Below are positions 16,651 through 64,000 of a DNA stretch of 64,000 nt, piece after piece. The stretch is from Patescibacteria group bacterium. GTDB lineage: Bacteria > Patescibacteriota > Gracilibacteria > BD1-5 > UBA6164. A program made the translations under genes and the position numbers. The stretch covers positions 42,266-106,265 of the forward strand of contig JAVHSE010000023.1 in assembly GCA_036172015.1 (NCBI GenBank), written 5' to 3'. A model generated the notes under the pieces. It was given only the letters and a program-made list of their open reading frames with translations, ran no database searches and was not told where the DNA came from. Position 1 is the stretch's first letter, and each line of letters starts with the position of its first letter.

Positions 16651-16702
16651 ATTTTTAAATTTAGAACATATATTTATTATTTTTTCCAGCCTCCTGGAAA
16701 AA

Positions 16703-16726
16703 CTTACTTACTTACTTACTTACTTA
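16703..16726. repeat. Tetranucleotide SSR (CTTA)6, i.e. (TAAG)6 on the coding strand
   Basis: Six perfect tandem units spanning the stop codon of the methyltransferase gene. Followed by hairpin tttttccag-cctc-ctggaaaaa at 16681-16702. Confidence 0.95.
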
Positions 16727-18743: not shown

Positions 18744-18918
18744 ATCATCGTTTATAAAAAGTAAATATTTCACTCATTTTATAAGTATTTCAGAAAATAC
18801 AAATATATTTTTAAAAATATATAAAAAATATATACATAAATAAATTATTTTTTCAAATAATTTGATTTTACTTTTGCAGACTAAAAAATATAATAAAGAC
18901 AAATTATTCTCTAACTTT

Positions 18919-19641
18919 ATGATTATGTTAAGACTCATAGAAACTGAATTATATCAAAATTATATACATATAATAGAAAAAATAGAAATCAAATGACCAA
19001 AAATTATAGTAGCTTTACTTATTATACTTATTTGAGCTATTCTTGCGAGATTTTTATATTTACTTTTAATGGTTCTTTTTAAAAAATTTAAACTCAATGA
19101 GTTTATAGATAAACTAAAAATAAGTTTTGATGAAGAAAATTGTGAAATTTGACAAGAAAAAATAAAAAAGAAAAGTAAAAAAAATAAATTTACTGATAAA
19201 ATTAAAGTAGATGATGTAGTGGCAAAATCTATGAGTTATTATATTTTGATAATATTTTTTAGAATATCTATTAGTTATATTTGAATTATTGAAATAGAAA
19301 AATTTTTAAAAGACCTCACCAATTATCTTCCGAACTTATTTGTATGAGTTATGATTTGATTTTTTGGGATCAGATTTGCTAATTTCGTGTATGATGTAGT
19401 ATATCATACTTTAAGTTTAACGAGAGAAAAAACAAGTAAAATTATAGCTTCTGGTGCAAAAATAATTATATTATTTTTTACACTAATGGTATTTTTAGAT
19501 TATACCCAAGTAGTAAGTATGTTTATTATTAATACCATTCTCATAGGATTTATATCAATGCTCGCATTATCTTGCTGACTTGCTTTTTGACTTGGATGAA
19601 AAGATATAGCTCATGAAATACTGGAAAGTTTTAGAAAATAA
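18919..19641 (+). CDS. Multi-pass membrane protein (conserved TM-helix repeat type)
   Basis: 240 aa with at least 4 hydrophobic segments, C-terminus ..LSCGLAFGLGGKDIAHEILESFRK. Confidence 0.5.
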
Positions 19642-35273: not shown

Positions 35274-35447
35274 CAACAATATCAAGAGTAACACAGAAGA
35301 GATTAGGCTCGTTAGTATGTGTTCAGCAACCTTATAATTATATAAAAGGTGCTCATTCCTACCCGTTATGGGAAAGATATTTTAAGAAACCAAAAATTCT
35401 AAAAAATAATAAAACTTTCCCATAATTAAGGAAAGTTTTTATTTTTT
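35274..35447 (+). promoter_or_regulatory. SAM-I (S-box) riboswitch with intrinsic terminator, leader of metK
   Basis: Conserved blocks tatcaagag, agcaacc, aaggtgctcattcc and gaaagatatt. P1 is aatatc(35278-83)/gatatt(35376-81). Terminator aaaactttcc-N9-ggaaagtttt plus T-tract at 35411-35447. atgggaaag (35368-76) can instead pair with ctttcccat (35415-23) as an antiterminator. Confidence 0.75.
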
Positions 35448-35462: not shown

Positions 35463-36596
35463 ATGTTACAATATATTACGAGTGAATCCGTTACTTCTGG
35501 ACATCCAGATAAAATTTGTGATCAAGTATCTGATGCTATTTTAGATGCATGTTTAACTCAAGATCCTTATTCAAGAGTAGGATGTGAATGTTTAGCAGCG
35601 AATGATAATCTCGTTATTGCCGGGGAAATTACTACCAAAGCCAATGTTGATTATGTTAAAATAGCAAAAGAAACACTCAAAAAAATCGGATATGATAGTG
35701 ATGAAAAATACTATAATGCTGATAAAGTAAATTACTATAATTTCGTACACACTCAATCAAGAGATATCGCACAAGGAGTAGATACTGGTTGAGCTGGAGA
35801 TCAAGGGATTATGTATGGATATGCAACGAATGAAACTTCAAATTATCTCCCCCTTCCCATTGCTATCGCTCATACTCTTGGGAGAAGACTTGAAGAAGTA
35901 AGAAGAACTGGAGAAATCAATTATGTGTACCCAGATGGAAAGACACAAGTTACCGTGATTTATAATGAAACAGGAAAAGCTATCTGAGTTGATACTGTTC
36001 TTATTTCAACTCAACATGCACTTTGAGTAGATCAAGAAGTTTTGAAAAAAGATTTGATAGCAAAAGTTATTACTCCTGTTTTGAAATATTTTTGATATGA
36101 TATTACTGATGTAGCACATATTTATACCAACCCAACTGGAATATTCAATATAGGTTGACCTGTTTGAGATAGTGGGCTTACTGGAAGAAAAATAATTATT
36201 GATACCTATGGATGAGTTGGAAGACATGGATGAGGTGCTTTTTCTGGAAAAGATCCAACAAAGGTAGATAGGTCATGAGCTTATATAGCGAGATATTTAG
36301 CAAAAAATATTGTTGCTTCAGGAGTATGCGAAAGATGTGAAATCCAACTTTCTTATGCTATCTGAATAGCAAATCCTACGAGTATTTATGTAGATACTTT
36401 TGGAACTCATAAAGTTCCGGTAGAAAATATCATCAATACGGTAAAAGAGAATTTTGATCTTTCACCAGCAGGAATCATAAAAAAACTTGATTTAAGAAAA
36501 CCTATTTTTTCTCAAACTTCTACATATTGACATTTTGGAAAAGATTGACTTTCTTGGGAAGCACTTGATAGTATTGAAATATTTAAAAAAATATAA
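35463..36596 (+). CDS. metK: S-adenosylmethionine synthase
   Basis: 377 aa. [23 protein letters not shown] and GVDTG-[TGA][14 protein letters not shown] 35790-35792 sits on the first Gly of the invariant GAGDQG. Confidence 0.95.
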
Positions 36597-45863: not shown

Positions 45864-46421
45864 ATGTATAAAATTACCAGAGAGGAGGCATCAAATTTAT
45901 TAAATATGTCAACCAGAAGTATTGATAGATATATACGAGCTTGAAAACTCAGATCTAAAAAAGATGGAAAAATAGTATATATTCATCATGATGATGTGAA
46001 TAATTTTTTATCTTGATGAAAGAAAAAACAAGAAATTATTTATGGAAATATGAGGAATAATGAATTTAAAACAGAAATTCCAACGACTTTATTACCAGAA
46101 AATTTACATATTATGAATATTTTTGATAGCTTACGATCAGAAATAAAGCAAAAAGATGAAGAAATAAAAGAAATGAGTATAAGAATCTGACAAATGCAGG
46201 AAATAGTCAATAATTCTATTTCATTATTAGATTTCAAAAAAACTCAATTTTTACTCGAAGAATCAAAAAGTTCTCTTTCTTCTGATTTAGAAAATATAAA
46301 AAAAGAATTAGATAATAAAAATATTTTATTAAAAGAAGAAAAAAATCTTAATTTTATACTTATTTTTATATCTTTTATAGTTTTTTTTACTCTTGTGCTT
46401 ATTTGGTTTATAAAAATTTAA
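45864..46421 (+). CDS. HTH (excisionase/MerR-like) - coiled-coil - C-terminal TM protein
   Basis: 185 aa. ITREEASNLLNMSTRSIDRYIRAGKLRS is HTH-like. C-terminal TM FILIFISFIVFFTLVLIWFI. Confidence 0.5.
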
Positions 46422-46529: not shown

Positions 46530-46574
46530 TTTTAAGATAAAAATAAAGGAGCTTAGCTCCTTTATTTTTATCTT
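46530..46574. terminator. 21-bp perfect inverted repeat between tRNA-Arg and the pheT 3' end
   Basis: ttaagataaaaataaaggagc-tta-gctcctttatttttatcttaa. The right arm contains the pheT stop codon. Confidence 0.7.
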
Positions 46575-48904
46575 AAAATTCATCATTTTTTTTCAACTTT
46601 TGAAATAATTTCTTTCATTATACCCAACTTGACTTCATCTTTTAATGTTTCTGTCATCGATTGGATATAAATTTTAAAACTTAAACTTCTCTTTCCAGGA
46701 AGTTTTTCTTCATTTTCATATATATCAAAAAGTTCAACTTTTTTAATGAGTTCTTTATTCGTTCCAAGTATAGTGAGATATATTTCTCTTCCGTGAATTT
46801 TTTTATCTACCACAAATGATAAATCAAAATTATTTTCTTGAAAATTTGATAATTCTTTTGCTTTTACTTTATTATAAATAGTGGGTAATAATTTTGATAC
46901 TTCTATATCAAAAAATCCAATTCTCTCTGAAATACCAAATCTTTTTGCAATACTTGGATGAATTTCTCCAACATATCACACTTCTTTTCCTCTTACTATT
47001 ATTTTAGCAACTCTTCCAGAATGTGCATAACTCGGATGTTTTTCACAAAATGTAAAGTAAAAATTATCTACAAATATCGTTTTTAAAAAATCACTTACTC
47101 ATTTTTGAATATCATAATATACTATTTCTTTTATTGAAATCATAACTCAAGATAATCTATAATCTTCGGTAATATTGGTACCATCTTTATAAAAAACTTT
47201 TTCTATTTCAAATAATTTTATATTTTTTCTTTCTCTAATATTATCCTCTAATCACACCATTAAATTTGGAATTAAACTATTTTTCATATGGGTAGCATCT
47301 TCACTGAGAGAATTTTTTAAATCAACACATTCTGAAATATTCATATTCAATTTTTCGAGTAAATTTTTATTTACAAAAGAATAATTATATACCTCAAAAA
47401 ATCATCTATCAGTAAAAAATTTTTTTGAATCTTTTTTAAAAATATAAATTGGATCTTGAATAATAGCTCATAAATTTACTCTTGGAATCGTTGGTATTAT
47501 TTTATCATATCCATCTATTCTGGCAATTTCTTCAGCAATATCAGCTTTGGTAGTTAATTCTTTCCTCCAAAAAGGAATAATAAGTTCATTTCCATTTTTT
47601 TGAATTCAAAGATGATGTAAAATATCTATCACATAGGATTCTTCATAATGAGCTCCTATTAAATTATTATAAAATGATAAATCAAATTCTTGTTTTATTA
47701 CAGGTTGTTTTTTTATATAGCTATCAAAATAACCTTCTATTTTTAATTGAGGAAATTCTTTTAATAATTCATTATAAATGAGACTCGTAGCATAACTTGC
47801 GAGATCAGTTAAAATATCTTTTTCAAATACATTGAGAGCATCAGTTCTTACTCATAATCTTTTTCCAGTCATTCTTAAAATAGCTTGATCAAAATGAGCT
47901 GTTTCAATGATTATATTTTTTGTTTGATCAGATACTGCACTTGATTTTCATCAAATAATTCCAGCAAGAGCTAATACTTTTGTATTATCTGCAATAACAA
48001 TATCTTTTTCACTGAGTTCATATACATTATTATCGAGTGCTTCTAAACTTTCTCATGTGCGAGCAAATCTTATGGTAATATATCAATCAATACAATCAGC
48101 ATCAAATATATGGGCAGGTTGCCCGTAAAAATAGAGTGAATAATTTGATACATCAACCAAGAGTCATCTTACTTCATGTCAAGCAGATTCAATAATAGTT
48201 TTTATTTCATCTCTTGAAATCACATTTCAAACTCAAGAAATTTTTAATAAACTATATCTTTTTACTACTTCAGGTAATTCGTTTATTGCTTTTAGTTTTG
48301 GTATATTTGAAAAGTCCATTGTTTTATATTCATGTCAAAAATCTTTCCCATAAATAGTAGCAAGTTCTCTTCATATCCCCATATAAGAAAACATATCTGG
48401 TCTATGATTAATAGCTTTATTATCTATTTCCAAAATTTCATCATTTTTTCCTAAATACTCTCTCAAATTTATTCATAGTGGGGTATCTTTCGGTAACTCC
48501 CGAATTCAGTCTTGTCTTTGTTCTATTAATCCAAGTTCATCTAAACTACAAATCATTCACTCCGAAATTTCTCATCTGATTTTTGTTTTTTGTATTATCA
48601 TTTCAGAACTTAATTGAGCTCATACTATAGCTATTGGAACTTTTATACCAGCTTTCACATTTGAAGCTCAACAAATAATTTGTTTCGTTTCTCACAAAAT
48701 AGAAACTTGACAAATATGTAATTTTTCACTTTCAGGATGTTTTATACATGAAATCACTTCTCCGACATATACATTTTTGAGATTTTCATTTTGCATAATA
48801 ATTTCTTCTACTTCAGCTGTGTGCATAATTAACTTTTGAGCTGTTGTATTTGAATTTTCTAAATATGGTACATATTTTTTTAATATTTTATAAGAAACTT
48901 TCAT
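46568..48904 (-). CDS. pheT: Phenylalanine--tRNA ligase beta subunit
   Basis: 778 aa. N-terminal tRNA-binding domain MKVSYKILKKYVPYLE...VGEVISCIKHPESEKLHICQV. C-terminus ..SKVEKKGGILR* uses TGA-TGA at 46580-46585. Confidence 0.9.
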
Positions 48905-49013: not shown

Positions 49014-49571
49014 TTACTTTGATAAAAGATCTTTTAATTCAAATATATTTCTCTCAATTATAGGCTTTACTTCTTCAAAAATCCAATTACGATTGATAGA
49101 TTCTAATTCATTAATACTGAGTTTTGTATTATTTACACATAAATAATATATGTTATTTATATTTCCAATCATATCAAAACTTGATCATTCAGCTTGAGTT
49201 ATATATTGCCAATCTCATATATTAAAAGTATTTCAAATAATTGCTAATTCTTCAAATTCACTATTTTCTATAGCAGACTCTTCTTGATCTCTTAATGAAA
49301 AATCATACACTGGAGTAAATATTTCATCTTTTTTTTCAATAATTATAATTTCATCAAAACAACGAGTTAATTGTATAAATTGTAAAGATATATAATCAAG
49401 TTCTTCTGTAATTTTATCAGGGAAAGAACTTATAAACATTCTTCTTCTAAAAGAAAGTTTTTTTTGAATTAATGGTGCGATTTGTGATTGTATAATTCAT
49501 CTGGTTTCATCTATTTTGTTTTTTCAATATGGTTGAGGTACACTATTATTTTGATATTCTTCTATAATCAT
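49014..49571 (-). CDS. Hypothetical protein
   Basis: 185 aa in code 25, with no recognisable motif. Preceded downstream by hairpin aataaagag-N14-ctctttatt. Confidence 0.45.
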
Positions 49572-49908
49572 TTGATTCTATTATTATAATTTAAAATTAT
49601 TATTTGCCACTTCATTTTACTTAATAAATATATAAATCAAATATAAAAAGAAATACTTTGAATATAGTAAAATAGTAAGATGTATAGTAATACCTTTTCA
49701 ATGTCTTCATAGTATTATGGTTCAGTATAGCAGAAACATTGAGAACTTTCTTTGTAAAAAACCCTGATTTTACTCTACCTAATCAGTATAACCAAGGTTT
49801 TAACGAGTATTATAAGTATAGATGAAAGCCAAAAGAATTTTATAGTAAATCTAAGAAAATGTAGCTTTAATCATATAGTTACTTTTTGTTTATTTATATA
49901 AGCATATT

Positions 49909-51771
49909 TTAGTGAGAATTAAAATCAAGGATTATATTAAATAAAATTCTAAAATTTTCAAATTCTCCACTATCTAATATTCTAACTTTTTCAGTAAAAT
50001 TATTTTTTGAAGTATCTGATTCAGAAATTTTATAAAAATATAAATCTTCTTTTTTATCTATTTGATCCTGATTTAATTTATCTCTCACATTTGTTATACA
50101 ATGATTTATATCATCAAAAGTTCTTTTTGATATCATTCAACTAGTTTTTAATATTTCTTTTGAATATAAAAATTCAATCGGACAATTTTTATGAGTTTCA
50201 AAATCTGTATTTGGACAAGGAAGAGTAATTCAAAAAATATTATCTCTTTCTTTTACTTTATATTTTTTATTATCTTCCAAAGAATCTCAAATTTGTTTAA
50301 TTTGTTTTAATCATTCATTATCATAATCGAATATTCAAACTACAACTTTATTTTTAAAGAAGTCTTTTGGAATTCAAAGTAAAAACTGTTTTAATTTATC
50401 AGCTCAATCACATGAATAAATATCAAATTGATTTTTAATTCAAAGTTTTTCAATTGCAATTTCTAAATGCTTTTTATCTGTAATTCACTCTGTAACTAAT
50501 AAATATTTATTTCAACTATTTAGAAGAATTTCCATTTCATTTAGTGACATTTGTCAATCAGTAATTTTATCCAAAATTTCCCTTTTTTCTTTTAAATCAA
50601 GTTTTCAGTTTTCTAAATAAAATAAATGTTTTTTATTAAATTTATTCATTAAGGTTGGCGAATGTGTAGTCATGATAACTTCTCATTCTCAAAAGTTTAT
50701 TAGATAATTTTCAAATAAAATTTTTAATTTTTGTTTATTTCAAACATGAATATATGAATCAGGTTCATCTAGTAAAACTAAACTGTTATTTGAAACTAAT
50801 ATATTTGTAACAAAATAAATAAGTAATTGCTTTTTTTGTCATTCACTTAAATCTAATAAGGGTATATTATCAATAAGCTTTAAATTTATATTGTTTATAA
50901 GTTTATCATTTTTAGTTAATCAAAAACAAGCAATTGATAAATGCCAAAAGAAATCTAAATGACTTCAAATAGTTCAATAATCATCACTGTATTTTCTCAA
51001 AGATTCTAGAGTCCAATCATTTTTTGAAGATATTATTTTTACGAAATTTGTTACATCATTTTCTTTAAATTTTTCTAAGTTTTTTTCATCAATATCAAAC
51101 TCAATTTCATTAATCTTAATTCATTTTCAAAGTATATTTTCAACTCATTTGTATAATTCGTCTGTTTCAAAATCATATACTGAAATTAAGATTGTTAACA
51201 AAGCAATATTCCAAAAATCTTTGTTAATAAAAATCATTTTTGGAGTATCAAAAGAGAGAGTTGCTCAATCTAAAGTTAATTTATTATTTTTAACTGAAAT
51301 AATAAAATTTTGATAATATTCTTGATAATATTTTTCGTAAAGTCTTGTTTCTTCTCCTGAGTATAAAGCAATAATATTATATGGTAATATTAAACCTCTA
51401 TCAATATTTTTTGTAAATACTCAATCAATGTAATATCAAACCATTCTCATTTCTGTATCTTCTCACATCATACTCATAAAATCTCCTCAAGTAGGTCAGA
51501 TTGAAATTCATCATTTTGTATATTGTTGAATAACTTTTATATTTTTTCAGTCTTTAAAATATTCTAATTCATAACTAAAAGCACATCTTCTTTCATTTGT
51601 CTCATCATAAAGTCAATAAAAAATTGCACTTATTGCTTCAAGTACATTTGATTTTCAACTTCAATTGTTTCAAACAAAAATTGATATTCATTCAGATTTT
51701 GTAAAATCTATTGGATTTTCCCAGAAATCTAGGTTTTTAAATCATTTTATTTTTAGTGAGATTAGTTTCAT
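49909..51771 (-). CDS. Fused ABC-type (AAA_21-like) ATPase plus C-terminal TOPRIM/DUF4435- or RloB-like domain (AbiL/PARIS/OLD-like)
   Basis: 620 aa. Walker A VGNNGSGKSNVLEAI, LSEGQKK, Walker B LVLLDEPDSYIH, TTHSP. C-terminal LLVTEGITDKKHLEIA (TOPRIM Glu) and GIFDYDNEG (DxD). Confidence 0.75.
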
Positions 51772-52205
51772 TGTGTTCTTTTATTACAATATTTTTCTAT
51801 ACTCCTAACAAGAATATCCATATCATTACCATTAATTCTTGGTTCTGGTTCAGAAATCTTAATATCTTCATTATCATAATAAAGACTAGCTGATAGTATA
51901 ACTGAAATAACTATCGTAATGAATAATAAAAATCATGAAAAAATTAAATATGCTTTATCTTTAAAATCTTTATATTTTTCAATAATAATTCACACTGAAA
52001 TAAATGCTATTCAAAAAGAAATATTTATGAAAATATTTAATTCTAAATCAGGTTTTATAAAATTTGGTATAAAATAATTAATTCAAATTATAAGTATTTT
52101 TATTAAAGCTATAAATAAAACTGGTAATATCCCAATAATTATACTTTCTTTAAATCTAATTTTATTATCTTTTCACATAAAAAAATTTATAATTTTATTA
52201 AGCAT
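51762..52205 (-). CDS. Small 3-TM membrane protein overlapping the start of the ATPase-TOPRIM gene
   Basis: 138-147 aa (ATG 52205 or 52178). TM segments IIIGILPVLFIALIKILIIG, IFINISFGIAFISVGIII and LIFSGFLLFITIVISVILSA. Its 3' end overlaps the downstream start by 10 nt. Confidence 0.5.
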
Positions 52206-52232
52206 AAATAAATAAATTAAAAAAATAAAATA

Positions 52233-53603
52233 TTAACTAAAAATTTCCCTCTCAAACTCAACTTTTGCAATTTCTTTCAAATCCCCAGAAAGTTTTTTCA
52301 AACTCTTAATTTCTTCTTTTAAATCTCAAATATGTTTTACTATTTTGTCTTGAGTTTCAATTTCTGGTAAAGGAAAAAATATTTTTAATAAATTTCAAAC
52401 TCATAATTCAGTTTGTTTTGTTGCTTGAGCAGATTTTATATTATCTACTTGTTCTTGTCATAAATTATTATTAAAGAAAGTTACAAAAAAATCTGGATTA
52501 ATTATACTTTGATTCAGTCTTAATAATAATAAGTGACTATCATATAATAATCCTTCAAATCATTCCCTTATTAAACTAGCTCTTCATATTGTCCCTTCTC
52601 AAGTTGAATTAATTAATATATCTCAAGTTTGAGTCAATAAATTATTATCAATTCATTTTAACCAATTTTCATCAACTATTTTTCAAAATTGTAAGTCTAT
52701 TTCATCCCACCTATTACATTTTTGGTTTAATATGATTTTATTTCATTTTTCCGAATATTCAGGACTTTTTCATCTTTTAATATCTTTATAATAATCTATA
52801 TTATCTCATAAAGACACAAGTTTATATTTATCACTAGAAAAAAGATTAAATATATTTATCTTATCAACTCCCCATTCCTTTATTTTTAAATAATCCACAA
52901 AATTTAATCATATTTTTTTATTTTCTTTTTCTTTCACTTCAATTCCTAATTCTTCCATCAAATAACTTTCAATTTGTTTTTCTAATTCTCCAGCTTTTAT
53001 ATCAGCATTTAAAGAATCTTTAAGCTTTGCATTATATTCTTCTACAATTCTATTTTGTTCTTCTAAACTTGGAAGTGGTATTTTTGTATTTAGAAAAACA
53101 TTCATATCAACTCTTTGTCTTCAAGTTGTTCAACTACTTCATTGTTGAGTGTAATCCAAAAATTCTTTTGTTCATAAAATAAGTATTAGAAATTGAATAT
53201 TTATTTTATTTTTATCTACTATAAAACTTGGAAAATCATTTGTTACAATAGCTCATTTTAAATCTACTGGAACTATTCAAAAAGCTCAATTTCTGGCATC
53301 AATTTTTGACATTATAAATTCTCATCATGAAACTAAAAATTGTTTTTTAGTTCAGATATTTTCTCACTTTTCTATATCTCTCAAAAAAACTCAATTATTA
53401 TTCATTTTTATAGTAACTCTTTTGTATTCTTTTCAGTCTTCTATATCTATTTGAGTTTTATTTCTCATCAAAAAATCTCAAATTTTTACAAATTCAAAAT
53501 TTTTGTTATATGAAAAGGCTGTTCATTTCAGATATTGAACACTCCAGTTTGAGACATCTATAAAGTCTATAAATTTCAAATATGTATTATTTAATATTTC
53601 CAT
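52233..53603 (-). CDS. hsdS: Restriction-modification specificity subunit (HsdS-like, two TRDs)
   Basis: 456 aa. ..SSGTTGRQRVDMNVFLNTKIPLPSLEEQNRIVEEYN.. (central conserved region), ..STGEGTIGRA.. and ..IFFPLPEIETQDKIV... Confidence 0.85.
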
Positions 53604-53630
53604 AATTTTACTTTCCTTATTTATTTTAAA

Positions 53631-53800
53631 TTACATACTAGTTACATAGTTTGTTGGCTTATTATAAACATTATTACTTTTTATGAACTTCTTCAGTTAC
53701 ATACCAGTCACATATTACTTTGGCTTATAATAAGGATTTATATATTAAACACTCTTTTAGAATCACATGCCAGTCACATAGATTTATGCCCAATATGGAA
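53631..53800. repeat. Three imperfect direct repeats with exact 66-bp spacing (starts 53631, 53697, 53763)
   Basis: 18-nt core tYACATRCYAGTYACATA: ttacatactagttacata, ttacataccagtcacata, tcacatgccagtcacata. Repeats 1 and 2 also share ttggcttatNataa. Lies between the hsdS start and the 3' end of the AlbA_2 gene. Confidence 0.8.
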
Positions 53801-55214
53801 TGTATTCATTATTCTTTTCTCATGCTTTAATTTTATTATTATCTATGGCAAGTTTTATAATTCTTGAAGCCATTGAATAATTTTTTTCTGCAATATTAAA
53901 TCTTTCTCTTAGACTACTATTTGTCATTTTTTCTTCACCAGATAAATACTTTAAAACACAATGTTGATAACAAGCCCTTATTTTATCTGATTCAGTCATA
54001 TTTCTTAATTCTCTAGGAGAATATAATGTTACTCTTGTAAATTCATCATATATTTCAAAATTTGGTGCTGGTAATTGAAAAAGTTCTATATTTGATATAG
54101 CTCTATCAACTCAAGATCCACTTTCTTCACAATATCAGAATCTTCTCATTAAACTGGCTAAATCTTCATTTCTAGATTTTGGAGGATGATCCATAAATCT
54201 ATCAACATCAATTAAAGGAATTCAAGGATTTGTTATTTCAATTCTATTGTTATAAATTTCAATTAATGGTCAAGTTCATGTAATTGAAAAATCTTGATGA
54301 ATAATAGCATTAGCAATAAATTCTCTTAAACTAACTTCTGGGTAAATAGATTTTTTAATTCTTAAAGCTCTTCATATTTCTTCATTTTCTCATATTTTAG
54401 AAATAATATAATCTATAAGTCCTTCAAATCATACTGCATATCACTTTTTTCATTCGATTTCTTCTTTTCTAATATTTTTATTATTTCAATCATATATTAT
54501 AACTCTAATTGTTTTTCTTTTAATTAAATCAAATTTTTGTATATCACGAGCAAATAATATAGCTCATAAAACAGTTATTGAATATTTTCAATTATCTTGA
54601 ATTTTTACTAAATTATCTTCTGCTAATTTTTCAACAAATTTTTTAGTTTCAGTTGGTAAGTCTTGTTTTGTTAATATAAAATATTTATCATAATCTAATA
54701 ATTTTAAAACTTCATCATAAGTTAAATTTTCATAACAAATTTGTTTTTCAAAATTTTTATTTTTTAAGTTATTCCAAATTTTTTCTTCTATTCTAGGATA
54801 GTTTGCTAAATTAGTTGTACTTTCTCCGTCTCTAATATAAGCAATATTATCAAATCTAATAGGAATATTTTTAGCACTTTCAATTTTTAAAATAACTACT
54901 TTTTTTCATTCAACTTCTAATTCTAAAAATTCTACAAATACTTTTGGAGATAATTTTTGAGATAACCAAATATGTAAATTTTGATTTCAAACTTTATAAT
55001 CATTTGGCTTAAAATCTGTTCAAATTATCTTTTTAGTTAAATTTTCAACTCAAAAAAGAATATATCAAAAATCTCTTCATTTTAATAAAGCTGTATTTGA
55101 AATAGCAGAAATATTTTTTCAATCTCTTTCTTTATCAAAATTTTCTTTAAATTCTATATATCAAATTCATTCATGTTGATTTAATAGAGTTTTTAATAAT
55201 TCTATATTTTCCAT
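53784..55214 (-). CDS. AlbA_2 (Schlafen-like) plus HATPase_c_4 putative DNA-binding/regulatory protein
   Basis: 476 aa. N-terminal ..HEGIGYIEFKENFD.., central ..REFIANAIIHQDF...IEITNPGIPL...SRNEDLASLMRRFGYCEESGSGVDR.., and a C-terminal wHTH-like tail. Confidence 0.7.
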
Positions 55215-55233
55215 ATTGTTAAAATTTAAATTG

Positions 55234-57366
55234 TTACCATAAATTATTTTGTTTTCTATATTTTGCAAATTCTTCTGCAAGTGGTTCAAGTTCATTTTCT
55301 ATAACTGCTCAAGTTGTAGAAATTCAAGCTTTATCAACTTCTGCAATAGCAATTTTGTAATTAAAAGTTTCTTTTATTTTCCTTTTTGTTTCCATATTTC
55401 TTTTTTCCCATAATACCACTATCTCAGCAGGAATCTTCTTTTTTTCATCTTTGTCTTTTATTTCTTTGAGTTTTTTAGTAAGAGACTTAATTTGTGAATC
55501 ATAGATTCATCCTATATCTAATTCTGCATGTGCTTTTATTTCTTCATATTCTTTTTCCTCTTCTAAAGTAAATTTCTTTAGAAAAACTAAACTTGGCTTA
55601 ACTGTTGCTCAACTTGCAACAAACACATCTTGAGGTATTGAAGTAATTAATAGTATTTTTGCTCTTCATTCAAAATAATCTCTTACTTTTTGTAAATTTG
55701 AATTATTCAAAACTCATTCAGGAAGAACAATTCACATTCTTCATCATGCTTTTAAAAGCCTTAAATTTCTTTCCATAAATAAGACTTCTGTAAGAGTTGT
55801 AAACTTTCCTAAATCATATAAATCAACCAAATTTTTACCTATATTTCATTCAATTTGATTCAAAGCTTTTAAATATTCATCTCAATATTTTTCAATATAA
55901 TATTTCTTCTTAACTTCATCTTTATATTTATCTCATTCTTCTATTTTTAAATCTTTAGGAACTCTAGAACCAAAAGGAGGATTTGCAAGTATTACATCAA
56001 ATCTATTTTCAAAAATTCAGTTTACATTTAATAGTCAGTCATTATGATGAATTCCATTATGTCAATCTCAGTGCATTATCATATTCATTTTTGAGACTCT
56101 TGCCATTCTAGGATTTGCATCAGTCCCAAAAATAGAATTATGACAAAGTTCATTTATTCTTTTTTCTTCTTCTTTGTTTATTTCTTCTAAGTAATTATTA
56201 TATTTTTTATTTAGTTCTTCATTCTCAATATTTTCCAAATTTTCTCAGAAAATTTCTTTTTGTTTTTGTTTCTTTAATAAAATAAATTCATTAGATATTT
56301 CTTCTCTTATTTTCTCAAAAGCTTTAATTAAAAATCAACCTGAACCACAAGCAGGATCGCAAATTAACTCTCATTCTTTTGGTTCTAATATATCAACCAT
56401 AAAGTTTACTATGCTTCTTGGTGTAAAGAATTGTCATAATTCACCTCTTAAGGTTCTTCAAAGAAATTTTTCAAAAGCAATTCACTTTATATCTGAACTT
56501 GTAGTAGTTAGATTATATTTTTCCAGTTCTTTTACTATTTGTTCAAAACTTACTTCTCTTAGATTTATTTTCTCATATTGGTCAAAAATATTATCATTTT
56601 TAAATTCTTCTTTAACATCTTCAAAAAGTCTTTGCATATATGAATTTTCTTTTTCACTTCCCATTCTTATAGTTTCCCATGCATCTTTTAATTTTTGAAA
56701 TTGTTTAAAAGAAAAAATTGCTTCTTGTTTTGGTTTTCTTTCATACATTATTTTAATAAAAAGTATTTTCGATATTTCATCAAAAGCACTTTCAGGAGAA
56801 AGTTTATCATTATTTCTTATTATATTATGACATTTTTGTAATACTTTTGAAAATTCGTCTCAAGTAAATTCTTTGGTTTTAGCTAAAAAATCTTCTAATT
56901 TCGCATTATCTAAAATATCTTTTACATGAGGAATATCGTTTACTGGTTGTAAACTTAAAGGTAGTTCTTCTTCTACTGTTTTATAAACTTGAAGTTCTTT
57001 TGAATTGCTTACTGCAAAAAGTTTTGCTCTACTCCAAGTAGCATAATTATATCATTGATAACAATCTTCAACTTTTAAATTTATATAAGGAGCTTTTAGT
57101 TCCACAACTAAAAATGCAGTTTTATTTGATAATTTTTCCTCTTTAGTTTTCCATACTACTATATCTGCTCTTGCTTTTCAATTTCCTCTTTGAGAGTTTG
57201 TTAATAAAACCTCTTCATACATTTGCTCAAGAGAGTATCAATAATCATTTATTAATTTACAAACAAATTCTTGTCTTACAATCTCTTCTGGAGTTGATTC
57301 AAGATATTTATCTCTTATAAAAGAATAAATTTTTCAATTTTTATCATATTTTAATTCTAGATTCAT
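55234..57366 (-). CDS. hsdM: N6-adenine DNA methyltransferase (HsdM-like) with N-terminal PD-(D/E)xK/HsdR_N-like domain
   Basis: 710 aa. N-terminal KARADIVVW...AFLVVELKAP. GQFFTPRSIV, CDPACGSGGFL (motif I), LANPPFGS (motif IV). Confidence 0.85.
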
Positions 57367-57436
57367 AATTATAATATTTTAAATAATTTTATTAAATATA
57401 TATAATATAAGTTGTTATTCAAGTTTAAATAATTAT

Positions 57437-57565
57437 TTATAGTTCTGAATATTTTTCTTTTCAAGAAATATTGTGTTTTAAAGATTTAAAATCTTTATGT
57501 TCAATATTTTTGTTTTCTTTTGGAAAATTTGATTTTATATATTCTTTCAGTTGATTTTCTAGCAT
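57437..57565 (-). CDS. 42-aa ORF, possibly a remnant of an AlbA_2-type N-terminus
   Basis: MLENQLKEYIKSNFPKENKNIEHKDFKSLKHNISGKEKYSEL. Weak resemblance to the E-x-E-F-K start of AlbA_2 proteins. May not be expressed. Confidence 0.2.
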
Positions 57566-57589
57566 ATAGAATTTGAATTAGTTAATAAT

Positions 57590-59314
57590 TTAAATTTTAT
57601 TTCTCAAGATAAAATTAATAAATTTATTTAGTAGATTTTGAAAGTTTATCAATAAGATTTTTTTAACTCATAAAATTTTTTCTACATTAAGAACTCAACC
57701 TCATAAAAAATCATACATTCATATAATTCTTTCTATTGGTAAAAAATACCTTTGAACATTCTCATCATTAACTAATTTATTTATGGATCATACTGCTATA
57801 ATTCATTTATTGTCTTTTATATTTAGTTTAAAAGAAGAAATATCTAGTCATAATTTTTTTATATTGTTTTCTATAAACTCAAGATATTCCCTATGAGAAT
57901 CATATAAAATAATTTTTGAAAAATTTTCGTAATACTCCTTAAATTTATTTTCAAATTTCAAACTACTTCTTACTATAATATTTGAAGTAGTAAATTTAGA
58001 ATCAAATAAAGTTATATTTCTACTTTCATAATTTATTATTAATAAATCTATTTCTAAATTTCAACTTTTATGGTTTCAGACATTTCTATAAAAATCTAAA
58101 TAATTTTTTCAATAATTTGTTATTCTAATAAATTTAAATCAATCTAGAGTAATTAGAAATTTATTATTATAGTTTTTTAAATCAATTATTCAATTAACTA
58201 GTTTTAATACTGTGTAAATTTCAAATATATTAAATAATGCAGTATCAATACCTATAGCAGTCTTAAATTTATTATAAAAATCTTCTATGTCCTCAAAATT
58301 TGTTAATCAAATGTCCTCTATATTTTTATGCGATAAGAATCTACTCTTTATTTTATCATTTTTTAGTAAATTTGAAACTATAGAAAATATTTTATCAAAA
58401 GAATTAAATATACTATTTTGATTATAATCAATATTATCTATAAATTTATTATTTTTAAAAGAAATAAAATCATCATAGTAAACTATATTTTTATTTTGTC
58501 TTAAAACTTCTATAATATCTTTAACATTCAGTATAGAAACTATAGTATTTGAAACTAATTCACTTATAGCTAACTTTCAAATGTCAGATTCATTATAAAT
58601 ACTCTTTATATTTGAGATAAAATTATCTATATTTAGAAAATCCAAGTTCTCTATTATTCTTGATATTTCAACTCATTCAATTATTTGTTCTAATTGATTT
58701 TTTAATTCCTCATATTGTCTTGGAAAATTATATTCATCAAATGATATATTATCTAGTATTTCATCAATTTTTATATTATCAGATTGTAAAGTATTACTAT
58801 TATTTAATTTTACATCTTTTGTTAAAACAAGATCTTTTAAATCAAATTTATTTCTCAACACATTAATCCACTTTCTATACTCAACTACAATTTTATCATT
58901 AATATAATTTAAAGTAGCTCATGGATATAATGATAATATTTGTTTATTAATGTCATCTATATTTGGGTATATTCAGCGAATTATAAAGTTTTCTATAAAA
59001 GTGAATATTTTAGGTTTAATATTTTTAGAAAATTCATCATCGATTATTATATTAAAATATTTTTCAAAATTATAATCTTCTAATATTTTTCTTACACCTG
59101 TTTTTATTCTTCAAGGCTTTAACTTTAAAATTTCAGGACAAGGTGCATTTTTAGAATCTCACTCTATTCACATAACTTTATCTAAAAGTCTATACCTATC
59201 AAAATTAGGAGCTAATGTACTTCTATAGATATTAGACAAATAGTTAAGATAAATATTTATTACTTTATCTTCCATAGAAATTCAATCATTATATCAAGGA
59301 TTTTTAATACTCAT
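57590..59314 (-). CDS. Hypothetical 574-aa protein downstream of the OLD-UvrD pair
   Basis: Single code-25 ORF with about 20 in-frame TGA, starting 21 nt after the helicase stop. No TM segments, P-loop or nuclease motif that I can assign with confidence. Confidence 0.6.
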
Positions 59315-59335
59315 ATACTTTTAAAAAGTTAAAAA

Positions 59336-61024
59336 TTATAGCTGGATTACATTTTCTTCTCAAAAAACATTTTCCCATCAATTTAATGCATTTGCATTTA
59401 AACTAGATAAATAAAGAACAACTAGTTTGTGTTTTGCTCTTGAAAGAGATACATATAATAAATTTAGTAATCTTTCTTCTGCTTCTAAATGTTTTTCTTG
59501 ATCTTTATTTAGTTTTTCTCAAGAAACTAGCTTATCAAATCATCTATAAATATACCACCTATGAGAATCATCAATTATTACTAAAACATTATCATATTCA
59601 GCTCATTTAGTTCAATGTTGTGTTGAATAAGGAGTCATATTTTCTCTATATTTATAATATTCAATTATTTCTTTGTATTCCAGATTTAAAATAGAGTTTT
59701 TAAATTCATTAGCTATTTCTTGTCTTTCAATTTTTTCCTGTTCAGAAAAACTCTCTAATAAATATTCTTCAAATTTTGAAATTCTATCAGTCTTTTTAAA
59801 AATGTTATTATTAAAAATATATTTTAGAACTGTTTCAATAGATTCATTATTTCTTATTTTCTCCAATCAAATAATTAAATTTTTTAATTTCTCTTTATCT
59901 GTTATTTTATTTACTTTAAAATCTTTATCTCAAAATAATTCAAATAAATTATAATAATCCTTTTTGTTAAAATAAAAAATAAGCTTTTCAATTTTTGTAA
60001 CTAAAAAATTAATATAAGGTTCATCAGCCTCTTTTAATCTATCATTTCCATTTAAACTGTATCTTTTTTCAAAAATATCTATTAAATTTCTAAATCATAA
60101 ATCTTCTCATATCTTTTTGTTAGTTAGAACTAATATTTTATTTTCAGAAGGATTATTTTCGAAGTCCCAGTTTAAAACTTCTAAAGTTTTTTTATATTTT
60201 TCTTCAACATCTAAAGAATTTGAGTAATAAAAGTTTACTTCACCATCAAAGTCTTTCATAGCTACTTGTTTTAGTCAATCTTTTTTTTCTCTGACATTAT
60301 TTACTAATTTAACAATTTTTTTTCAACTTCTAAAATTTTCTAATTTTTCTATTTTTTCTAATTTATCACTAATAAGTTTTCAAATTGTATTATTTTGATA
60401 GATTTTTTGCATTGAGTCTCAAAAAAATCATAATAAAAACTTTTCTTGATTTCAGTTTAAAACTTCTAAAAAAGTATTTACAATTTCTTTATTAGTATCT
60501 TGATATTCATCAATAAATAAATATGGATATTTTCTTATTAGTATTTTTGCTAAAGAAGGATACTTATTGAACATTTTTACTGAAAAATTAATAACATCAT
60601 CATGTCATATTTCTCAATTTTTTAATCTTCTTCAATATTTTCAATAACTAATAGTTAATGATTTTAATAATGATTCAATATCATCAATTTTTTTATCCCA
60701 ATCTAAGTCATTATTTAATTCTATTATTTCCTTCTTTAAATTAACTTGATAGTCTCATATTAATGACCAAAGAAACTCATGTATTGTATTTATTTCAACT
60801 ATATCAGAGTATCATAATCTTTTTATCATTTCATCTTTAGCGACATTTGTATAAGTTATACAAGCTATTTTTTCTCATGTATGATAAAAAGAGTCTCATT
60901 TAATTGAAATTATATGTCTTATAGTTTCAATTAGTGTATATGTTTTTCATGATCATGCTCAAGCTTCTAATATAAAGCTTTTTTTATTTTTTATTGATTC
61001 TATTACTTTTTCTATTGTAGTCAT
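59336..61024 (-). CDS. UvrD/PcrA/Rep-like SF1 helicase (GajB-like)
   Basis: 562 aa. Walker A LEAGAGSGKTYT, FIDEYQDTN, FFGDSMQKIY, STQHGTKGAEYDNV, LLYVSLSRAKHKL. Confidence 0.85.
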
Positions 61025-61025
61025 A

Positions 61026-63038
61026 TTATTTTGATAACCAAATTAAACCTTCTTTAATATATTTTGGAATAATAAATGACTCCATCATCAATACATCAAA
61101 AGCAAAATCTGTCTTTAAAGAATTATTATCTATATAACTTGAAATTTCCCAAGATTTCTCTTTTACTTGATCTTTATTTAATGAAGAAAATTTATTTTTT
61201 AAAATTATAGATTCTTTAGAGTAATTTTCTAGTTTTTCATAATTTGCTAATATAAATGCCTCTTCAAAGCTTCTTCATGTATTTCAGTTTTCCTCAATTT
61301 GATATGCAACTCTATAATTTCATACAATTTTGCTATTTTCTGCTAATGATAATAAAACTGACAATTCCTTTTTTCAAGGAATCCAATTTATTAAAGTATA
61401 ATTACTAGTGTATTTTCATTCAGATACTTTATAACTACATTCTTTAGAATCATCAGAATCAATCTTTTTTCAAGTAAATCATAATAGTATTTTTTCTTCC
61501 TTTGTTTTTTTATCAACAGAATCAATATCTGTAATTATTAAAGTTTTTATTCATATAAATTCAAGAAAATTCTTAAATTTATGTGAATATGCTCATCAAA
61601 CTTCTATAATAGAAATATATTGAGAAGTTAATTTTTCATGAATATTTTCAATCTCATTATCTATATTTAAAATAAATAATGGTAATAAAATTCTTTCTAC
61701 CATTCACTCTATTAATATTAATTTATCAGCAAAAAATATATCTGATTTTTCTAAAGTTAAATATTTTTTTAGAAATTCAAAATTTCATTCATCGTTGAAG
61801 TTGTTCAAATCTTTGACTTCAGTATTACTATTTTCTTTTTTGAAGTATCTAATTTTTGTAAAATCAGAACATGTGATAATATGAGAAGAATGAGTCGTTA
61901 AAACTATTTGCACATTCCATCATTTGCTATTTATAAACTTTTCTATTTGCTTAATAAAAGTTTGTTGCATTTGTGGGTGTAAATGAGCTTCTGGTTCTTC
62001 TATAAATAATAATTGAAATTGTGGAATAGGTTTTAACTTGATGAATTCTCAATATAAATATGAAAATTGAAGTATTATATATATTAAATTACTATATCAA
62101 AGTCCATTGTAGGATTCAGGTAACTGATAATCTCAGTTTGAGTAGTATATTTTTGAGTTATTTCATTTCATTAATTCTACTGCAGACAATTCAGCTTTTA
62201 ATGATAATTTTCTATCTTTGTCAGACAATCATGGATATCAAAAATTTCATAAATCTTCTTGTAGAACTTTAAAAAACTTTAAATATTCTCCATCTAAGCT
62301 ATCGTTAGTTTTAGACAGTAATGTATCTAAACCTTTTTCTATGTTTAAGTCTGTATTTTTCTTAAAGTAATTTTCAAATATTTTTGATAAAGTATTATTT
62401 TTATCAGAAGAGTTATCATCTAAATCTCTTTGGGCATTTATAAAACTTGTATTAAATATACTACCTATATCTTTATTAAGTTTATGCATTAAATTTGATG
62501 AATCAATAACAAACTTTTGAATCTCAAAATTTCATTCAAAGTTATTTTTTATATAATTTATAATTTTAAAATCTTCTTCATCTCAATATAATTCTTTAAT
62601 TTTTTGATAAAATCATATCTTATTTTTCATCACTAATTTTAGACAGATTTTATACTCATCTATTGAGTCTTCTAAATCTCCTCTAAAATCTAATCAATCA
62701 TCATCTTCTTCTATCTTAAAGTTAATAATAAGAATTATTTCCGGTATGGATTCTTCAAATATATTATATTTTTTACCTCTTTCTTTTTCATCTTCTATTT
62801 CTTTTTCATAGTCCATGTATAACTTTAAAGATTCTTTTAATTTAACATGTGTACATATTGAGAAATCATTGAAATCAAATTTACTTCAATCATTAAAAAA
62901 TTTTTTAAATAATTCTGTTAATGATGTTTTTCAACTATTATTTCTTCATACAATAATAGTATGATTTTTATTAAATTCTAAATTCTCAATGTTATGTAAT
63001 AATCTAAAGTTTTTTATACCAATGCTTTTTATGTACAT
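61026..63038 (-). CDS. OLD-family ATP-dependent endonuclease (class 2 OLD / GajA-like): ABC ATPase plus TOPRIM
   Basis: 670 aa. Walker A VGRNNSGKTSL, Walker B LLFIEEPEAHLHPQ, LTTHSSH, TOPRIM LILIEGMVERILLP and LIITDIDS. Stop lies 1 nt before the helicase ATG. Confidence 0.85.
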
Positions 63039-63156
63039 AAAATATTAATAATTAATAAAATTTAGATAAAAAATTATCTATAAACAAATTGATTATATTC
63101 ATTACATATTAATTTTATATTAATTTTTAAAAGAAAATTTTATTTTATGTTAAAAA

Positions 63157-63747
63157 CTATAAATCTAGCTTATTACAAGCATTCATAATTTCATCTGCAG
63201 TTATTCATAAATATCTCATAGTTACAGCAAGAGAAGAATGATTTAACTTATGTTGTATAATTTCAAGAGGTATTGCATTTATACGAGCTTGATATCACCA
63301 AGTTTTACGGAGAGTGTGATTTCAGAAATTACCTTTAAGTCAAACATCTTCGCAAATTTTAGAAAGAAGTATCCAGCTCATTTTACGACCTATAGATTTA
63401 ATTCAAAGTGGGAAAGTTTTTTTTTGAAAAAATATAAAATTATTTTTATCTAAAATAATATTTGGATAAGTTTCTTTATATAGTTTTAAAGTTTCTTTAA
63501 CTTTTGGAGTAATAGTAATCCTATTAGTTTTATTTGTTTTTTCTTCTTTTATATCAAAAAAATCCTTTATACCTGAGTTATTCTCAAAAATATCTTTTAC
63601 TTGAATAGAAAGTAAGTCTGAAATACGAAGAGCTGAATTTATTCATAATTCAAATAAAAGTAAGTCACGAATATTTCAATCAAATCTAAGTAAATTTTTT
63701 ATTTGAGAAATCTTTTTTATATCTCTAATTGGTTCTACAAATTGCAT
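63157..63747 (-). CDS. Short tyrosine site-specific recombinase (catalytic domain only)
   Basis: 196 aa. ..GINSALRISDLLS.. (Arg I), ..GNHTLRKTWGY.. (His-x-x-Arg), ..LNHSSLAVTMRYLG.. (His, catalytic Tyr). Confidence 0.75.
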
Positions 63748-63778
63748 GAATATATTAGTTAAAATATAATAAAACTTA

Positions 63779-63900
63779 TATTAAGTCTAATAATATGAAA
63801 TGTAAAATAAAAAGCAAATAATTTTATTCGCTTTCTTTTGATATAAATCAGGAAATATTAGACACAATACTATTAAGTCTAATATATTAAAATGCAATAC
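63779..63900. repeat. Two ~30-bp imperfect direct repeats upstream of the recombinase gene
   Basis: tattaagtctaataatatgaaatgtaaaata (63779-) and tattaagtctaatatattaaaatgcaatac (63871-). The first 14 nt are identical, spacing 92 bp. Confidence 0.7.
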
Positions 63901-64000
63901 CTATTAGTTCATTATTAACTATATGTTTAAAGTTTGAAACTATCAAGATAATAACAAATACAAAAGAAAAAGAGATTAATTTATTAATCTCTAAAATCTA

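Follow-up and report, generated by a model that had tools for sequence, protein, structure and literature searches.

Independent defense modules, rather than one mobile island, probably make up a 13.8-kb stretch of a Gracilibacteria-like genome that reads TGA as glycine

Introduction

Several described defense systems resemble parts of a 13.8-kb stretch of genes (positions 49909 to 63747) in the DNA analyzed here, a 64,000-nucleotide (nt) window of contig JAVHSE010000023.1 from a Gracilibacteria-like bacterium. One of these systems is Gabija, whose GajAB complex cleaves DNA once nucleotide pools are perturbed or DNA ends become exposed during phage infection. Another is the type Ic hsd locus of restriction-modification (R-M), inside which the gene for PrrC sits. 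A third is MADS, the eight-gene operon (mad1-8) of Pseudomonas aeruginosa, in which mad2 (the modification subunit, M), mad3 (an ATPase), and mad4 were needed for defense, and in which mad5 (the specificity subunit, S) could be deleted only if mad2 or mad3 was also deleted (bioRxiv 10.1101/2023.03.30.534895). These deletion genetics implicated M and the ATPase in restriction. The MADS operon was located in a defense hotspot bounded by pheT, and the detection model of its authors treated MAD6, MAD7, and MAD8 as mandatory (bioRxiv 10.1101/2023.03.30.534895). In addition, modules that combine an OLD-type ABC ATPase with a TOPRIM domain were described as pervasive partners of methylation-based systems (PMC12839542), and bacterial Schlafen proteins were described as phage-activated tRNases (PMC13056530).

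Here, we compare the 13.8-kb stretch with these systems and with its relatives in other genomes. The results suggested that the stretch is probably an accumulation of independent defense modules in a genome that uses genetic code 25 (TGA as glycine), and not one mobile island.

Results

The modules of the stretch are found separately in other genomes

A first-pass annotation of the window had described the stretch as a single defense island that was capped by a short tyrosine recombinase. All of the open reading frames (ORFs) on which that description was based were found on the minus strand between 49909 and 63747 (nine ORFs with TGA read as glycine), and the assigned functions were matched by profile searches of the table 25 translations in Pfam, PADLOC, and NCBIfam. 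The ORFs, with protein lengths in amino acids (aa), are as follows.

63157..63747, minus strand: tyrosine recombinase (196 aa), catalytic domain only
61026..63038, minus strand: GajA, an OLD-family ABC ATPase with a C-terminal TOPRIM nuclease
59336..61024, minus strand: GajB, a UvrD-like superfamily 1 (SF1) helicase; 1 nt from gajA
57590..59314, minus strand: orf574 (574 aa); 21 nt downstream of gajB
55234..57366, minus strand: M protein (710 aa), an HSDR_N_2 domain fused to a gamma-class N6-adenine methyltransferase
53784..55214, minus strand: Schlafen/AlbA_2 and HATPase_c_4 protein (476 aa, from Met-28 of a 503-aa ORF at 53784-55295)
52233..53603, minus strand: S subunit with two target-recognition domains
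51762..52205, minus strand: 147-aa protein with about three hydrophobic segments (residues 16-50, 54-77, and 83-111)
49909..51771, minus strand: 620-aa OLD-like ABC ATPase with a TOPRIM-like C-terminus; 10-nt overlap with the preceding gene

The high density of defense genes was thus borne out, as the stretch contained a complete Gabija pair, an R-M-like cassette (the last five genes of the list), and a Schlafen-type protein within that cassette. The idea of one island was not. The five-gene cassette was found at different loci of other recoded genomes without Gabija or the recombinase (contigs L021, L054, and L053), and the gajA-gajB pair was found alone in two other recoded contigs (L026 and L027), where it was accompanied by neither the recombinase nor orf574. 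Because the cassette and Gabija were each found without the other in these genomes, they appear to travel separately. Orthologues of the recombinase (69-82% identity) were present in four other recoded metagenome contigs (L029-L032), and none of their neighbors was shared with the window.

Relatives of the cassette were examined in the following contigs, which were short metagenome contigs of uncertain phylogenetic distance.

L022, Elizabethkingia, standard code: helix-turn-helix (HTH) protein, M, S, ATPase, 228-aa protein, FokI-type nuclease
L023, Aliarcobacter (L024 is a second contig of this locus), standard code: M, S, ATPase, HATPase_c_3, NOV_C
L055, metagenome contig, standard code: HTH protein, M, S, ATPase, Mrr nuclease
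L056, metagenome contig, standard code: HTH protein, M, S, ATPase
L021, recoded: M, AlbA_2 protein, S, 165-aa protein, ATPase
L054, recoded: M, S, 272-aa protein, ATPase
L053, recoded: M, S, ATPase

As shown in this list, a triad made up of M, S, and an AAA_15/AAA_21-type ABC ATPase was present in all four standard-code loci, and it was followed by varied nucleases in three of them. The window cassette was collinear with that of L021 at 79-94% DNA identity, except that the small gene was replaced, as was the second target-recognition domain of S. The flanking genes of the L021 cassette were rplK, terC, and recJ, and neither Gabija genes nor a recombinase gene accompanied it, and the L054 cassette was flanked by ligA and a tRNA methylase gene. 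We also observed a defense module just upstream of rplK (ribosomal protein L11) in two other recoded contigs (L021, 16807-17244; L027, 17582-18013): the cassette in L021 and Gabija in L027. The vicinity of rplK may be a defense hotspot in these genomes.

The R-M-like cassette lacks HsdR and resembles the core of MADS

The M protein matched Pfam HSDR_N_2 with 76 bits (residues 26-146, ADIVVW...VVELK) and N6_Mtase with 125 bits. In PADLOC, it matched MTase_I (PDLC03018) with 983 bits and mad2 with 161 bits, and the NCBIfam MAD2 model matched nearly its full length with 287 bits, which was below the cutoff of 720. The PD-(D/E)xK residues of the HsdR-type domain (D68...E89-x-K91) were retained in 27 of the 27 homologues that were read. 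Among solved structures, the longest alignment was to the type IIB enzyme RM.BsaXI and covered the methyltransferase part only (residues 174-610, 72.6 bits). A plasmid search with M returned only three distant matches, with at most 51% identity.

The AlbA_2 gene most likely starts at 55214; this start agreed with the gene call on contig L017 and with the L021 orthologue, and it removed the overlap with M. The protein matched Pfam SLFN_AlbA_2 with 67.2 bits (cutoff, 25.3) and HATPase_c_4 with 75.5 bits, and an E-x5-E-x-K pattern (HEGIGYIEFK) was noticed by eye only. It was 95% identical to its L021 orthologue and was absent from L053, L054, and all standard-code cassettes examined. The gene is therefore an optional insert between M and S.

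Pfam Methylase_S matched the S subunit in two stretches, and PADLOC Specificity_I matched its full length (residues 7-455, 174 bits). Its identity to orthologues was 56-79%, with the second target-recognition domain replaced relative to L021. A repeat search for signs of hsdS shuffling showed no inverted hsdS fragments. The 147-aa protein had no family match in Pfam, PADLOC, NCBIfam, or PHROGs, and its slot was filled by unrelated proteins of 165 aa in L021 and 272 aa in L054.

The ATPase at the end of the cassette matched Pfam AAA_21, SMC_N, and AAA_15. Residues 423-504 gave a weak, sub-threshold match to DUF3226, and there was no DUF4435 match. The PADLOC matches were PtuA (104 bits), mad3 (65 bits), AbiLi (62 bits), ATPase-Toprim_I-B (56 bits), AriA (52.5 bits), and AriAB (46.4 bits). 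Compared to the ATPase of the Aliarcobacter cassette, identity was 34% over the full length, and the TOPRIM-typical motifs vEGxtD and FDxDxxG were conserved. We also noted that three Logan contigs identical to the window (L017, L018, and L020) all ended at 51742, which is 30 nt into the 5' end of the ATPase gene; no repeat of the sequence at 51742 was present in the window to explain these ends.

No ResIII or HsdR-like helicase-type protein was found by Pfam among the ORFs of the stretch, and the HsdR protein of the recoded contig L029, when used as a query, had no homologue among the 52 ORFs of the window. None of the orthologous cassettes contained an HsdR gene. The first-pass annotation had listed an M subunit and an S subunit. 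The two are not a decayed type I system, as the M-S-ABC-ATPase triad without HsdR was conserved across phyla.

When the cassette was compared with MADS, both were found to lack HsdR and to combine a methylase with a specificity subunit and an ABC ATPase. M resembled MAD2, the ATPase resembled MAD3 (the PADLOC match given above), and S weakly resembled MAD5. In contrast, the cassette has five genes rather than eight, and its Schlafen gene and small membrane protein are not listed for MADS. The NCBIfam equivalog cutoffs were not reached either by MAD2 or by MAD5 (43 bits; cutoff, 400), and the MAD3 model matched GajA only (28.9 bits; cutoff, 420), so the cassette proteins are relatives and not equivalogs. 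MAD6, MAD7, and MAD8 were not found in PADLOC and NCBIfam scans of all proteins of the stretch.

The cassette shared with type I R-M systems a gamma-class N6-adenine methylase (the type I M model was the best in PADLOC), an S subunit with two target-recognition domains, and the presence of accessory genes within the locus, which is common in type I systems. It differed from them in lacking the HsdR motor, in having the HsdR N-terminal nuclease domain fused to M, and in having an ABC ATPase/TOPRIM gene in third position. The Schlafen/AlbA_2 protein resembled the pSlfn nucleases in its N-terminal SLFN_AlbA_2 domain and, like PrrC in the EcoprrI type Ic locus, was encoded within an R-M-like operon. 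Unlike in these cases, its C-terminal partner was HATPase_c_4 and its gene was optional. MANTIS (Gao_RL) was set aside because it is unrelated in composition.

Among the alternatives to our reading of the locus, the one that fared best concerned the division of labor within the cassette. Here, M and S would be a self-sufficient type IIB-like enzyme in the style of BcgI or BsaXI, and the ATPase/TOPRIM protein would be a separate abortive-infection guard, either fused PARIS-like or class 1 OLD, against anti-restriction proteins. The layout of M, an N-terminal PD-(D/E)xK domain joined to a gamma-class methyltransferase with S encoded separately, is that of the type IIB fusion polypeptides, and RM.BsaXI was the longest-aligned solved relative. 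Similarity to RM.BsaXI was, however, confined to the methyltransferase part, and the conserved, linked ATPase argued against simple membership in this group. To our knowledge, a conserved ATPase partner is not a feature of type IIB systems. The ATPase gene directly followed S, often overlapping it, in each of the eight cassette loci that were compared across phyla, which suggested an obligate partner. As for the proposed guard, an OLD-type ABC ATPase joined to a TOPRIM-like domain is also the arrangement of PARIS (AriA/AriB), both the AriA and the fused AriAB models matched, and OLD-ABC/TOPRIM modules were described as backup partners of methylation-based systems, a tie that also holds for BREX-related loci (PMC12839542). 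The AriA and AriAB scores were nevertheless weak (46-52 bits), those of PtuA, AbiLi, and mad3 were as high or higher, and the module was tightly linked to M and S. In addition, the ATPase of MADS (mad3) was required for defense and contributed to the lethality of the S deletion. A type IIB-like enzyme with a separate guard therefore seemed to us unlikely, although it was the most credible of the alternatives.

A complete Gabija pair is followed by an orphan gene

By all sequence criteria examined, the GajA/GajB pair was complete. GajA matched the PADLOC GajA model over its full length (residues 1-670, 576 bits) and matched Pfam AAA_15 (162 bits) and OLD-like_TOPRIM (61.8 bits), both above their cutoffs. 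Its best solved-structure match was Bacillus cereus GajA, with which the EEPE..LH, LIEG, and DxD motifs aligned. GajB matched its PADLOC model over the full length (459 bits), as well as Pfam UvrD-helicase (77.8 bits) and AAA_19, and its best solved-structure matches were PcrA and UvrD. As in known Gabija loci, the two genes are adjacent and co-oriented, and they encode an OLD ATPase/TOPRIM GajA (a class 2 OLD nuclease in Gabija) and an SF1 UvrD-like GajB. Unlike in those loci, each gene contained 27 in-frame TGA-Gly codons, and the orphan orf574 followed gajB, an arrangement that was not found beside the other Gabija loci examined.

The eight closest relatives of GajA (54-66% identity) had tryptophan where glycine was expected, for example in 'IIVWRNNSWKTSL', which indicated that TGA-containing genes had been stored as code 4 translations. 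Standard-code relatives, from Bacteroidota and other groups, were at most 44% identical. Scans of viral contigs with GajA and the recombinase returned no close relatives, the sole match being an integrase with 30% identity.

Since orf574 begins 21 nt after gajB, it is probably co-transcribed with gajB. Its product had no match in Pfam, PADLOC, NCBIfam, PHROGs, or PDB, including relaxed Pfam and PHROG scans and a profile search against PDB. A word-indexed search of 5.8 billion proteins returned only its own code 4 translation, and a HMMER scan of 1.84 billion representative proteins returned one relative (P0122, 28% identity), which was encoded on a recoded contig without defense neighbors. The best-conserved block between the two proteins was a C-terminal region with a PD-(D/E)xK-like pattern (EIDLLIINY-x7-LFDSKFTTSN). 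An AlphaFold 2 model of orf574, which was made from the code 4 translation with tryptophan in place of glycine, had a predicted local distance difference test score of 37 and was unusable.

One further ORF lies in the 223-nt gap between orf574 and M.

57437..57565, minus strand: 42-aa ORF

This ORF had been proposed to be a gene remnant. It had no family match, no relatives, and no similarity to the AlbA_2 protein, and it was not conserved upstream of orthologous M genes; it is probably not a gene at all.

The modules have probably long resided in recoded hosts

The genetic code of the window is code 25. The window had a G+C content of 23.9%, and it contained 78 ORFs of at least 100 aa when only TAA and TAG were taken as stops but 8 when TGA was also a stop codon. 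When gyrA was translated with X at each TGA and aligned to Escherichia coli GyrA, about 18 of the 29 TGA positions (counted by eye) fell on glycine and none on tryptophan, and the GQGNFGS and GIAVGMATN motifs were included among the former. Because the TGA sites fell mostly on glycine and never on tryptophan, TGA was read as glycine throughout.

The first-pass annotation had held that the stretch was native to recoded hosts, which agreed with our findings. Every gene contained in-frame TGA codons (6-37 each), and the share of TGA among glycine codons was 0.82 in the stretch and 0.60 in the rest of the window (p=0.001). The closest relatives of GajA and M came only from recoded genomes. In the proposed check of base composition, G+C was 0.216 in the stretch and 0.247 elsewhere in the window (p=0.015), and the tetranucleotide profile was within the spread of the rest of the window. 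Taken together, the composition supported long residence in recoded hosts.

It had also been claimed that the genes cannot be exchanged with standard-code bacteria. This held for export. The first in-frame TGA was found at codon 7-43 in every gene of the stretch, so none of the genes could be expressed as it stands in a standard-code host. It did not hold for import. Relatives of M on TGA-recoded contigs were 70-83% identical and standard-code relatives were at most 67% identical, with the Aliarcobacter and Elizabethkingia proteins at 65-67%. In a neighbor-joining tree, which was rough and in which tryptophan positions were masked to neutralize code 4 translations, the 15 recoded M sequences formed one clade, and the low-TGA copy of L053 was its sister. 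The number of in-frame TGAs in M was 3 in L053, 16 in L054, 27 in the window, and 29 in L021. In the L053 cassette as a whole (JGI Ga0256843_1010888, 45-5194), M, S, and the ATPase gene had 3, 1, and 5 in-frame TGAs versus 27, 29, and 37 in the window; these low counts fit either a newer import or a lineage with lower TGA use. The 65-67% identity of M to standard-code proteins and the three TGAs of the L053 copy argued that import across the code boundary has occurred. The simplest reading of these sequences would be import from standard-code donors, spread among recoded hosts, and gradual lock-in by the gain of TGA codons. The code barrier thus appears to be asymmetric, a one-way valve and not a wall.

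We also observed that a public collection stores the proteins P0001, P0002, and P0123 and the relatives P0003-P0021 and P0124-P0131 as code 4 translations, with a tryptophan for each TGA. This storage lowered the apparent identity of the very same gene to about 96%. The number of tryptophans at conserved glycine columns served as a quick flag of recoded origin.

The recombinase has conserved upstream sites and no partner site

The recombinase matched Pfam Phage_integrase with 67.5 bits, PHROG phrog_216 ("integrase") with 150 bits, and an NCBIfam XerA-like model with 68.7 bits, which was below the cutoff of 220. It aligned to residues 109-275 of XerA (4a8e) and retained the catalytic R, HxxR, H, and Y. 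The genes around its orthologues included, in L029, those for HsdR, a KilA-N protein, and a UvrD-like helicase; in L030, one for an SDH-type protease; and in L032, those for two large serine recombinases. The following features were found upstream of the recombinase gene.

63856..63884: site 1, an imperfect palindrome, TATTAGACACAATACTATTAAGTCTAATA, with 11-7-11 geometry; about 107-135 nt upstream of the recombinase start
about 63812-63838: hairpin with a trailing T run, located between the two sites
63778..63792: distal arm of site 2, ATATTAAGTCTAATA

The proximal arm of site 2 (about 63751-63767), which adjoins the start codon, was degenerate in the window genome. Both palindromic sites (arm TATTAGAC(a/t)(c/t)AAT) and the hairpin with its T run were kept upstream of five of the five recombinase genes, whereas the other intergenic DNA was not conserved. 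The consensus of site 1 over the five orthologues was TATTAGACayAAT-N3-ATTrwGTCTAATA. These conserved palindromes were the strongest hint of a cognate site for the recombinase, and site 1 is a candidate binding or recombination site that may act as a recombination site, an operator, or both.

A position weight matrix scan from the arms over 67 kb (the window and the adjoining sequence described below) detected no further copy, the only hit being a lone, chance-level half-site at 41092 without a partner arm. Searches for att sites, direct repeats, and patterns around the stretch detected only low-identity, AT-rich chance repeats, and none was located at the left border. The description of the stretch as capped by a recombinase was therefore correct insofar as an intact recombinase gene sits at one end, but no partner recombination site was present at the other border or elsewhere in the window. 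The recombinase marks a variable region, and the block as an excisable unit lacks support from the site searches.

Two other explanations of the recombinase were weighed against an accumulation of independent modules. According to the first, which we judged to be improbable, the recombinase is unrelated to the defense genes and belongs to a Xer/dif-type single-recombinase resolution module, or it is a FimB-size invertase or an autoregulated site-binding protein that acts on the two palindromes. XerS/difSL provides an example of a recombinase gene beside its own site, and the 11-7-11 palindrome was directly upstream in all orthologues. The top NCBIfam models were XerA, XerC, XerD, and XerS, the sole solved-structure match was Pyrococcus XerA, and the length of 196 aa is similar to that of tyrosine invertases, though the PRK09871 match was weak (19.9 bits). 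All of these NCBIfam scores were, however, far under the family cutoffs, the PHROG integrase family scored much higher, and the spacing of the two sites (about 90 bp) would be small for an invertible switch. A reading of the site as a chromosomal dif was rejected, since there was no strand switch in gene orientation and no sign change in GC skew at the site, as a replication terminus would show.

The second explanation, that the block from recombinase to ATPase is one integrative island mobilized by the tyrosine recombinase via its upstream site, is in keeping with the intact catalytic residues and the phrog_216 match, the palindrome beside the gene in five genomes, the variable, defense, or mobile genes that adjoin the orthologues (L029 and L032), and the slightly AT-richer composition of the stretch, but it was the least likely of all because no second site or direct repeat was found at the left border or in the window beyond the chance-level half-site, the tRNA gene is 3.4 kb off and behind pheT, both defense modules occur elsewhere without the recombinase and the recombinase elsewhere without the modules, and the protein has no N-terminal DNA-binding domain of the kind that typical integrases carry.

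The borders of the stretch and the remainder of the window

The housekeeping genes that had been placed to the left of the stretch were present, with one additional ORF between pheT and the cassette.

left of the stretch: gyrA, based on alignment to E. coli GyrA
left of the stretch, plus strand: tRNA-Arg(CCT)
from 46568, minus strand: pheT, based on Pfam
49014..49571, minus strand: orf185 (185 aa), between pheT and the cassette

The composition of orf185 was island-like (G+C, 0.229; TGA share, 0.83). It had no family match in scans of Pfam, PADLOC, NCBIfam, and PHROGs, and it was not beside pheT in 16 related genomes. The left border of the stretch is uncertain because orf185 separates pheT from it. 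The 337-nt intergenic region at this border (49572-49908) had a locally higher G+C content than its surroundings, with no Rfam match and no recombinase site.

For the comparison of pheT neighborhoods, we used 16 genomes labeled Gracilibacteria or 'Peribacteria' (the labels also included Patescibacteria), in which PheT was 47-69% identical and none of which was of the same species. No other window gene was found within 10 kb on either side of pheT in these genomes, and no empty site could be defined. The only close relatives of the window were contigs that were 100% identical, all of which carried the stretch; four public Logan contigs from SRR254905xx samples were 100% identical to window positions 51742-64000. 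It was also observed that the MADS-core-like cassette is near pheT here, as is the MADS operon in P. aeruginosa. This shared vicinity is probably a coincidence because the pheT neighborhoods of the 16 related genomes share nothing.

To the right, one Logan contig reached 3.4 kb beyond the window end, which brought the available sequence to 67 kb. The run of minus-strand genes was not specific to the stretch, as it began at pheT (46568) and extended at least 3.4 kb past the window end. The added sequence contained four further minus-strand ORFs whose products resembled secreted or membrane proteins rather than defense proteins: one had no Pfam match, one had a weak Fib_succ_major match only, one was partial at the contig end and had no match, and one of 79 aa was outside the scan.

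Defense genes were not confined to the stretch, as a second R-M-like locus was found at 14144-18938 on the minus strand, 31 kb away. It encoded a 740-aa protein with HSDR_N_2, N6_Mtase, and Eco57I matches (16716-18938) that was 25% identical to the M protein of the cassette, a RhuM-family protein (15670-16650), and an S-like protein of 493 aa (14144-15625).

Several other features were recorded in the window. A perfect 24-nt inverted repeat with a 1-nt loop at 46530-46578 separates the 3' end of the plus-strand tRNA-Arg gene from the stop codon of the minus-strand pheT gene and is likely a bidirectional terminator. Between gyrA and tRNA-Arg, a 185-aa protein (45864-46421, plus strand) had an N-terminal HTH_17 domain (excisionase/MerR-like) and a C-terminal hydrophobic tail. 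Upstream of a 377-aa ORF (35463-36596), Rfam RF00162 matched a SAM riboswitch at 35276-35383 on the plus strand with 48 bits, which exceeded the gathering score. The Rfam scan of the window detected only tRNA and this riboswitch, with no matches in the stretch. A promoter and terminator scan detected 151 sites versus 144 expected and was uninformative in DNA with 21% G+C.

Discussion

The results indicated that the 13.8-kb stretch is probably an accumulation of independent defense modules in a code 25, Gracilibacteria-like genome. We hold this view with moderate confidence, and several points weigh against it. The separate loci of the cassette in L021, L053, and L054 may partly reflect the very poor synteny of such genomes and not mobility. 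The Logan contig ends at 51742 hint that there may be population or strain variation within the block, where the most variable part of the cassette has its edge, or a paralogue elsewhere in the genome. The putative TOPRIM domain of the cassette ATPase was assigned from two conserved motifs, the sub-threshold DUF3226 match, and a partial match to the PADLOC ATPase-Toprim model. This ATPase matched several families (PtuA, AbiL, mad3, and AriAB) with scores in the weak to moderate range (46-104 bits), so that a restriction partner and an abortive backup are both possible. The candidate nuclease motif of orf574 is a pattern in two sequences and carries no family assignment. Finally, we infer the methylation target, the cleavage activity, and the anti-phage effect in every case.

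Our preferred model of the cassette is as follows. M and the two-domain S, as an M2S complex, would methylate a bipartite adenine target as a mark of self. An unmodified target would be cut by the N-terminal HsdR-type PD-(D/E)xK domain of M, by the ATPase/TOPRIM protein, or by both. The Schlafen/AlbA_2 protein could be a second-line tRNA or RNA nuclease, by analogy with PrrC, and the small membrane protein would be a variable accessory. The genes probably entered the recoded gene pool from standard-code bacteria, diversified there, and gained so many TGA-Gly codons that expression in a standard-code host became impossible. The short recombinase and its upstream palindromes may have aided insertion, but they would not delimit the block.

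A more ambitious picture can be drawn from the same parts, and we regard it as speculative and, taken as a whole, unlikely. In it, the HsdR-less triad would be a self-contained, widespread restriction system and a minimal MADS core in which the ABC ATPase/TOPRIM protein replaces the type I motor and to which Gracilibacteria add a Schlafen tRNase; the recombinase and its two sites would be an insertion platform for defense cargo in code 25 bacteria; and orf574 would encode a novel nuclease effector that is restricted to recoded lineages.

The code compatibility of Gracilibacteria phages has already been analyzed in the literature, and R-M, CRISPR-Cas, and abortive-infection systems were already reported in the related recoded lineage Absconditabacteria (PMC8080830). 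Thus, the Gabija and R-M-like cluster described here extends the known picture and does not change it, and Gabija itself is well studied. The less charted elements are the HsdR-less triad, the module of recombinase and sites, and orf574. The triad corresponds to the R-M-like part of MADS, the mechanism of which is unsolved, and compact versions such as those listed here could be convenient for dissecting MADS. At a practical level, code 4 translations in public collections can mislead annotation. For the biology of recoded bacteria, the locus provides a worked case of how a change in the genetic code shapes the pool of defense genes, in which the accumulation of TGA codons closes the way back.

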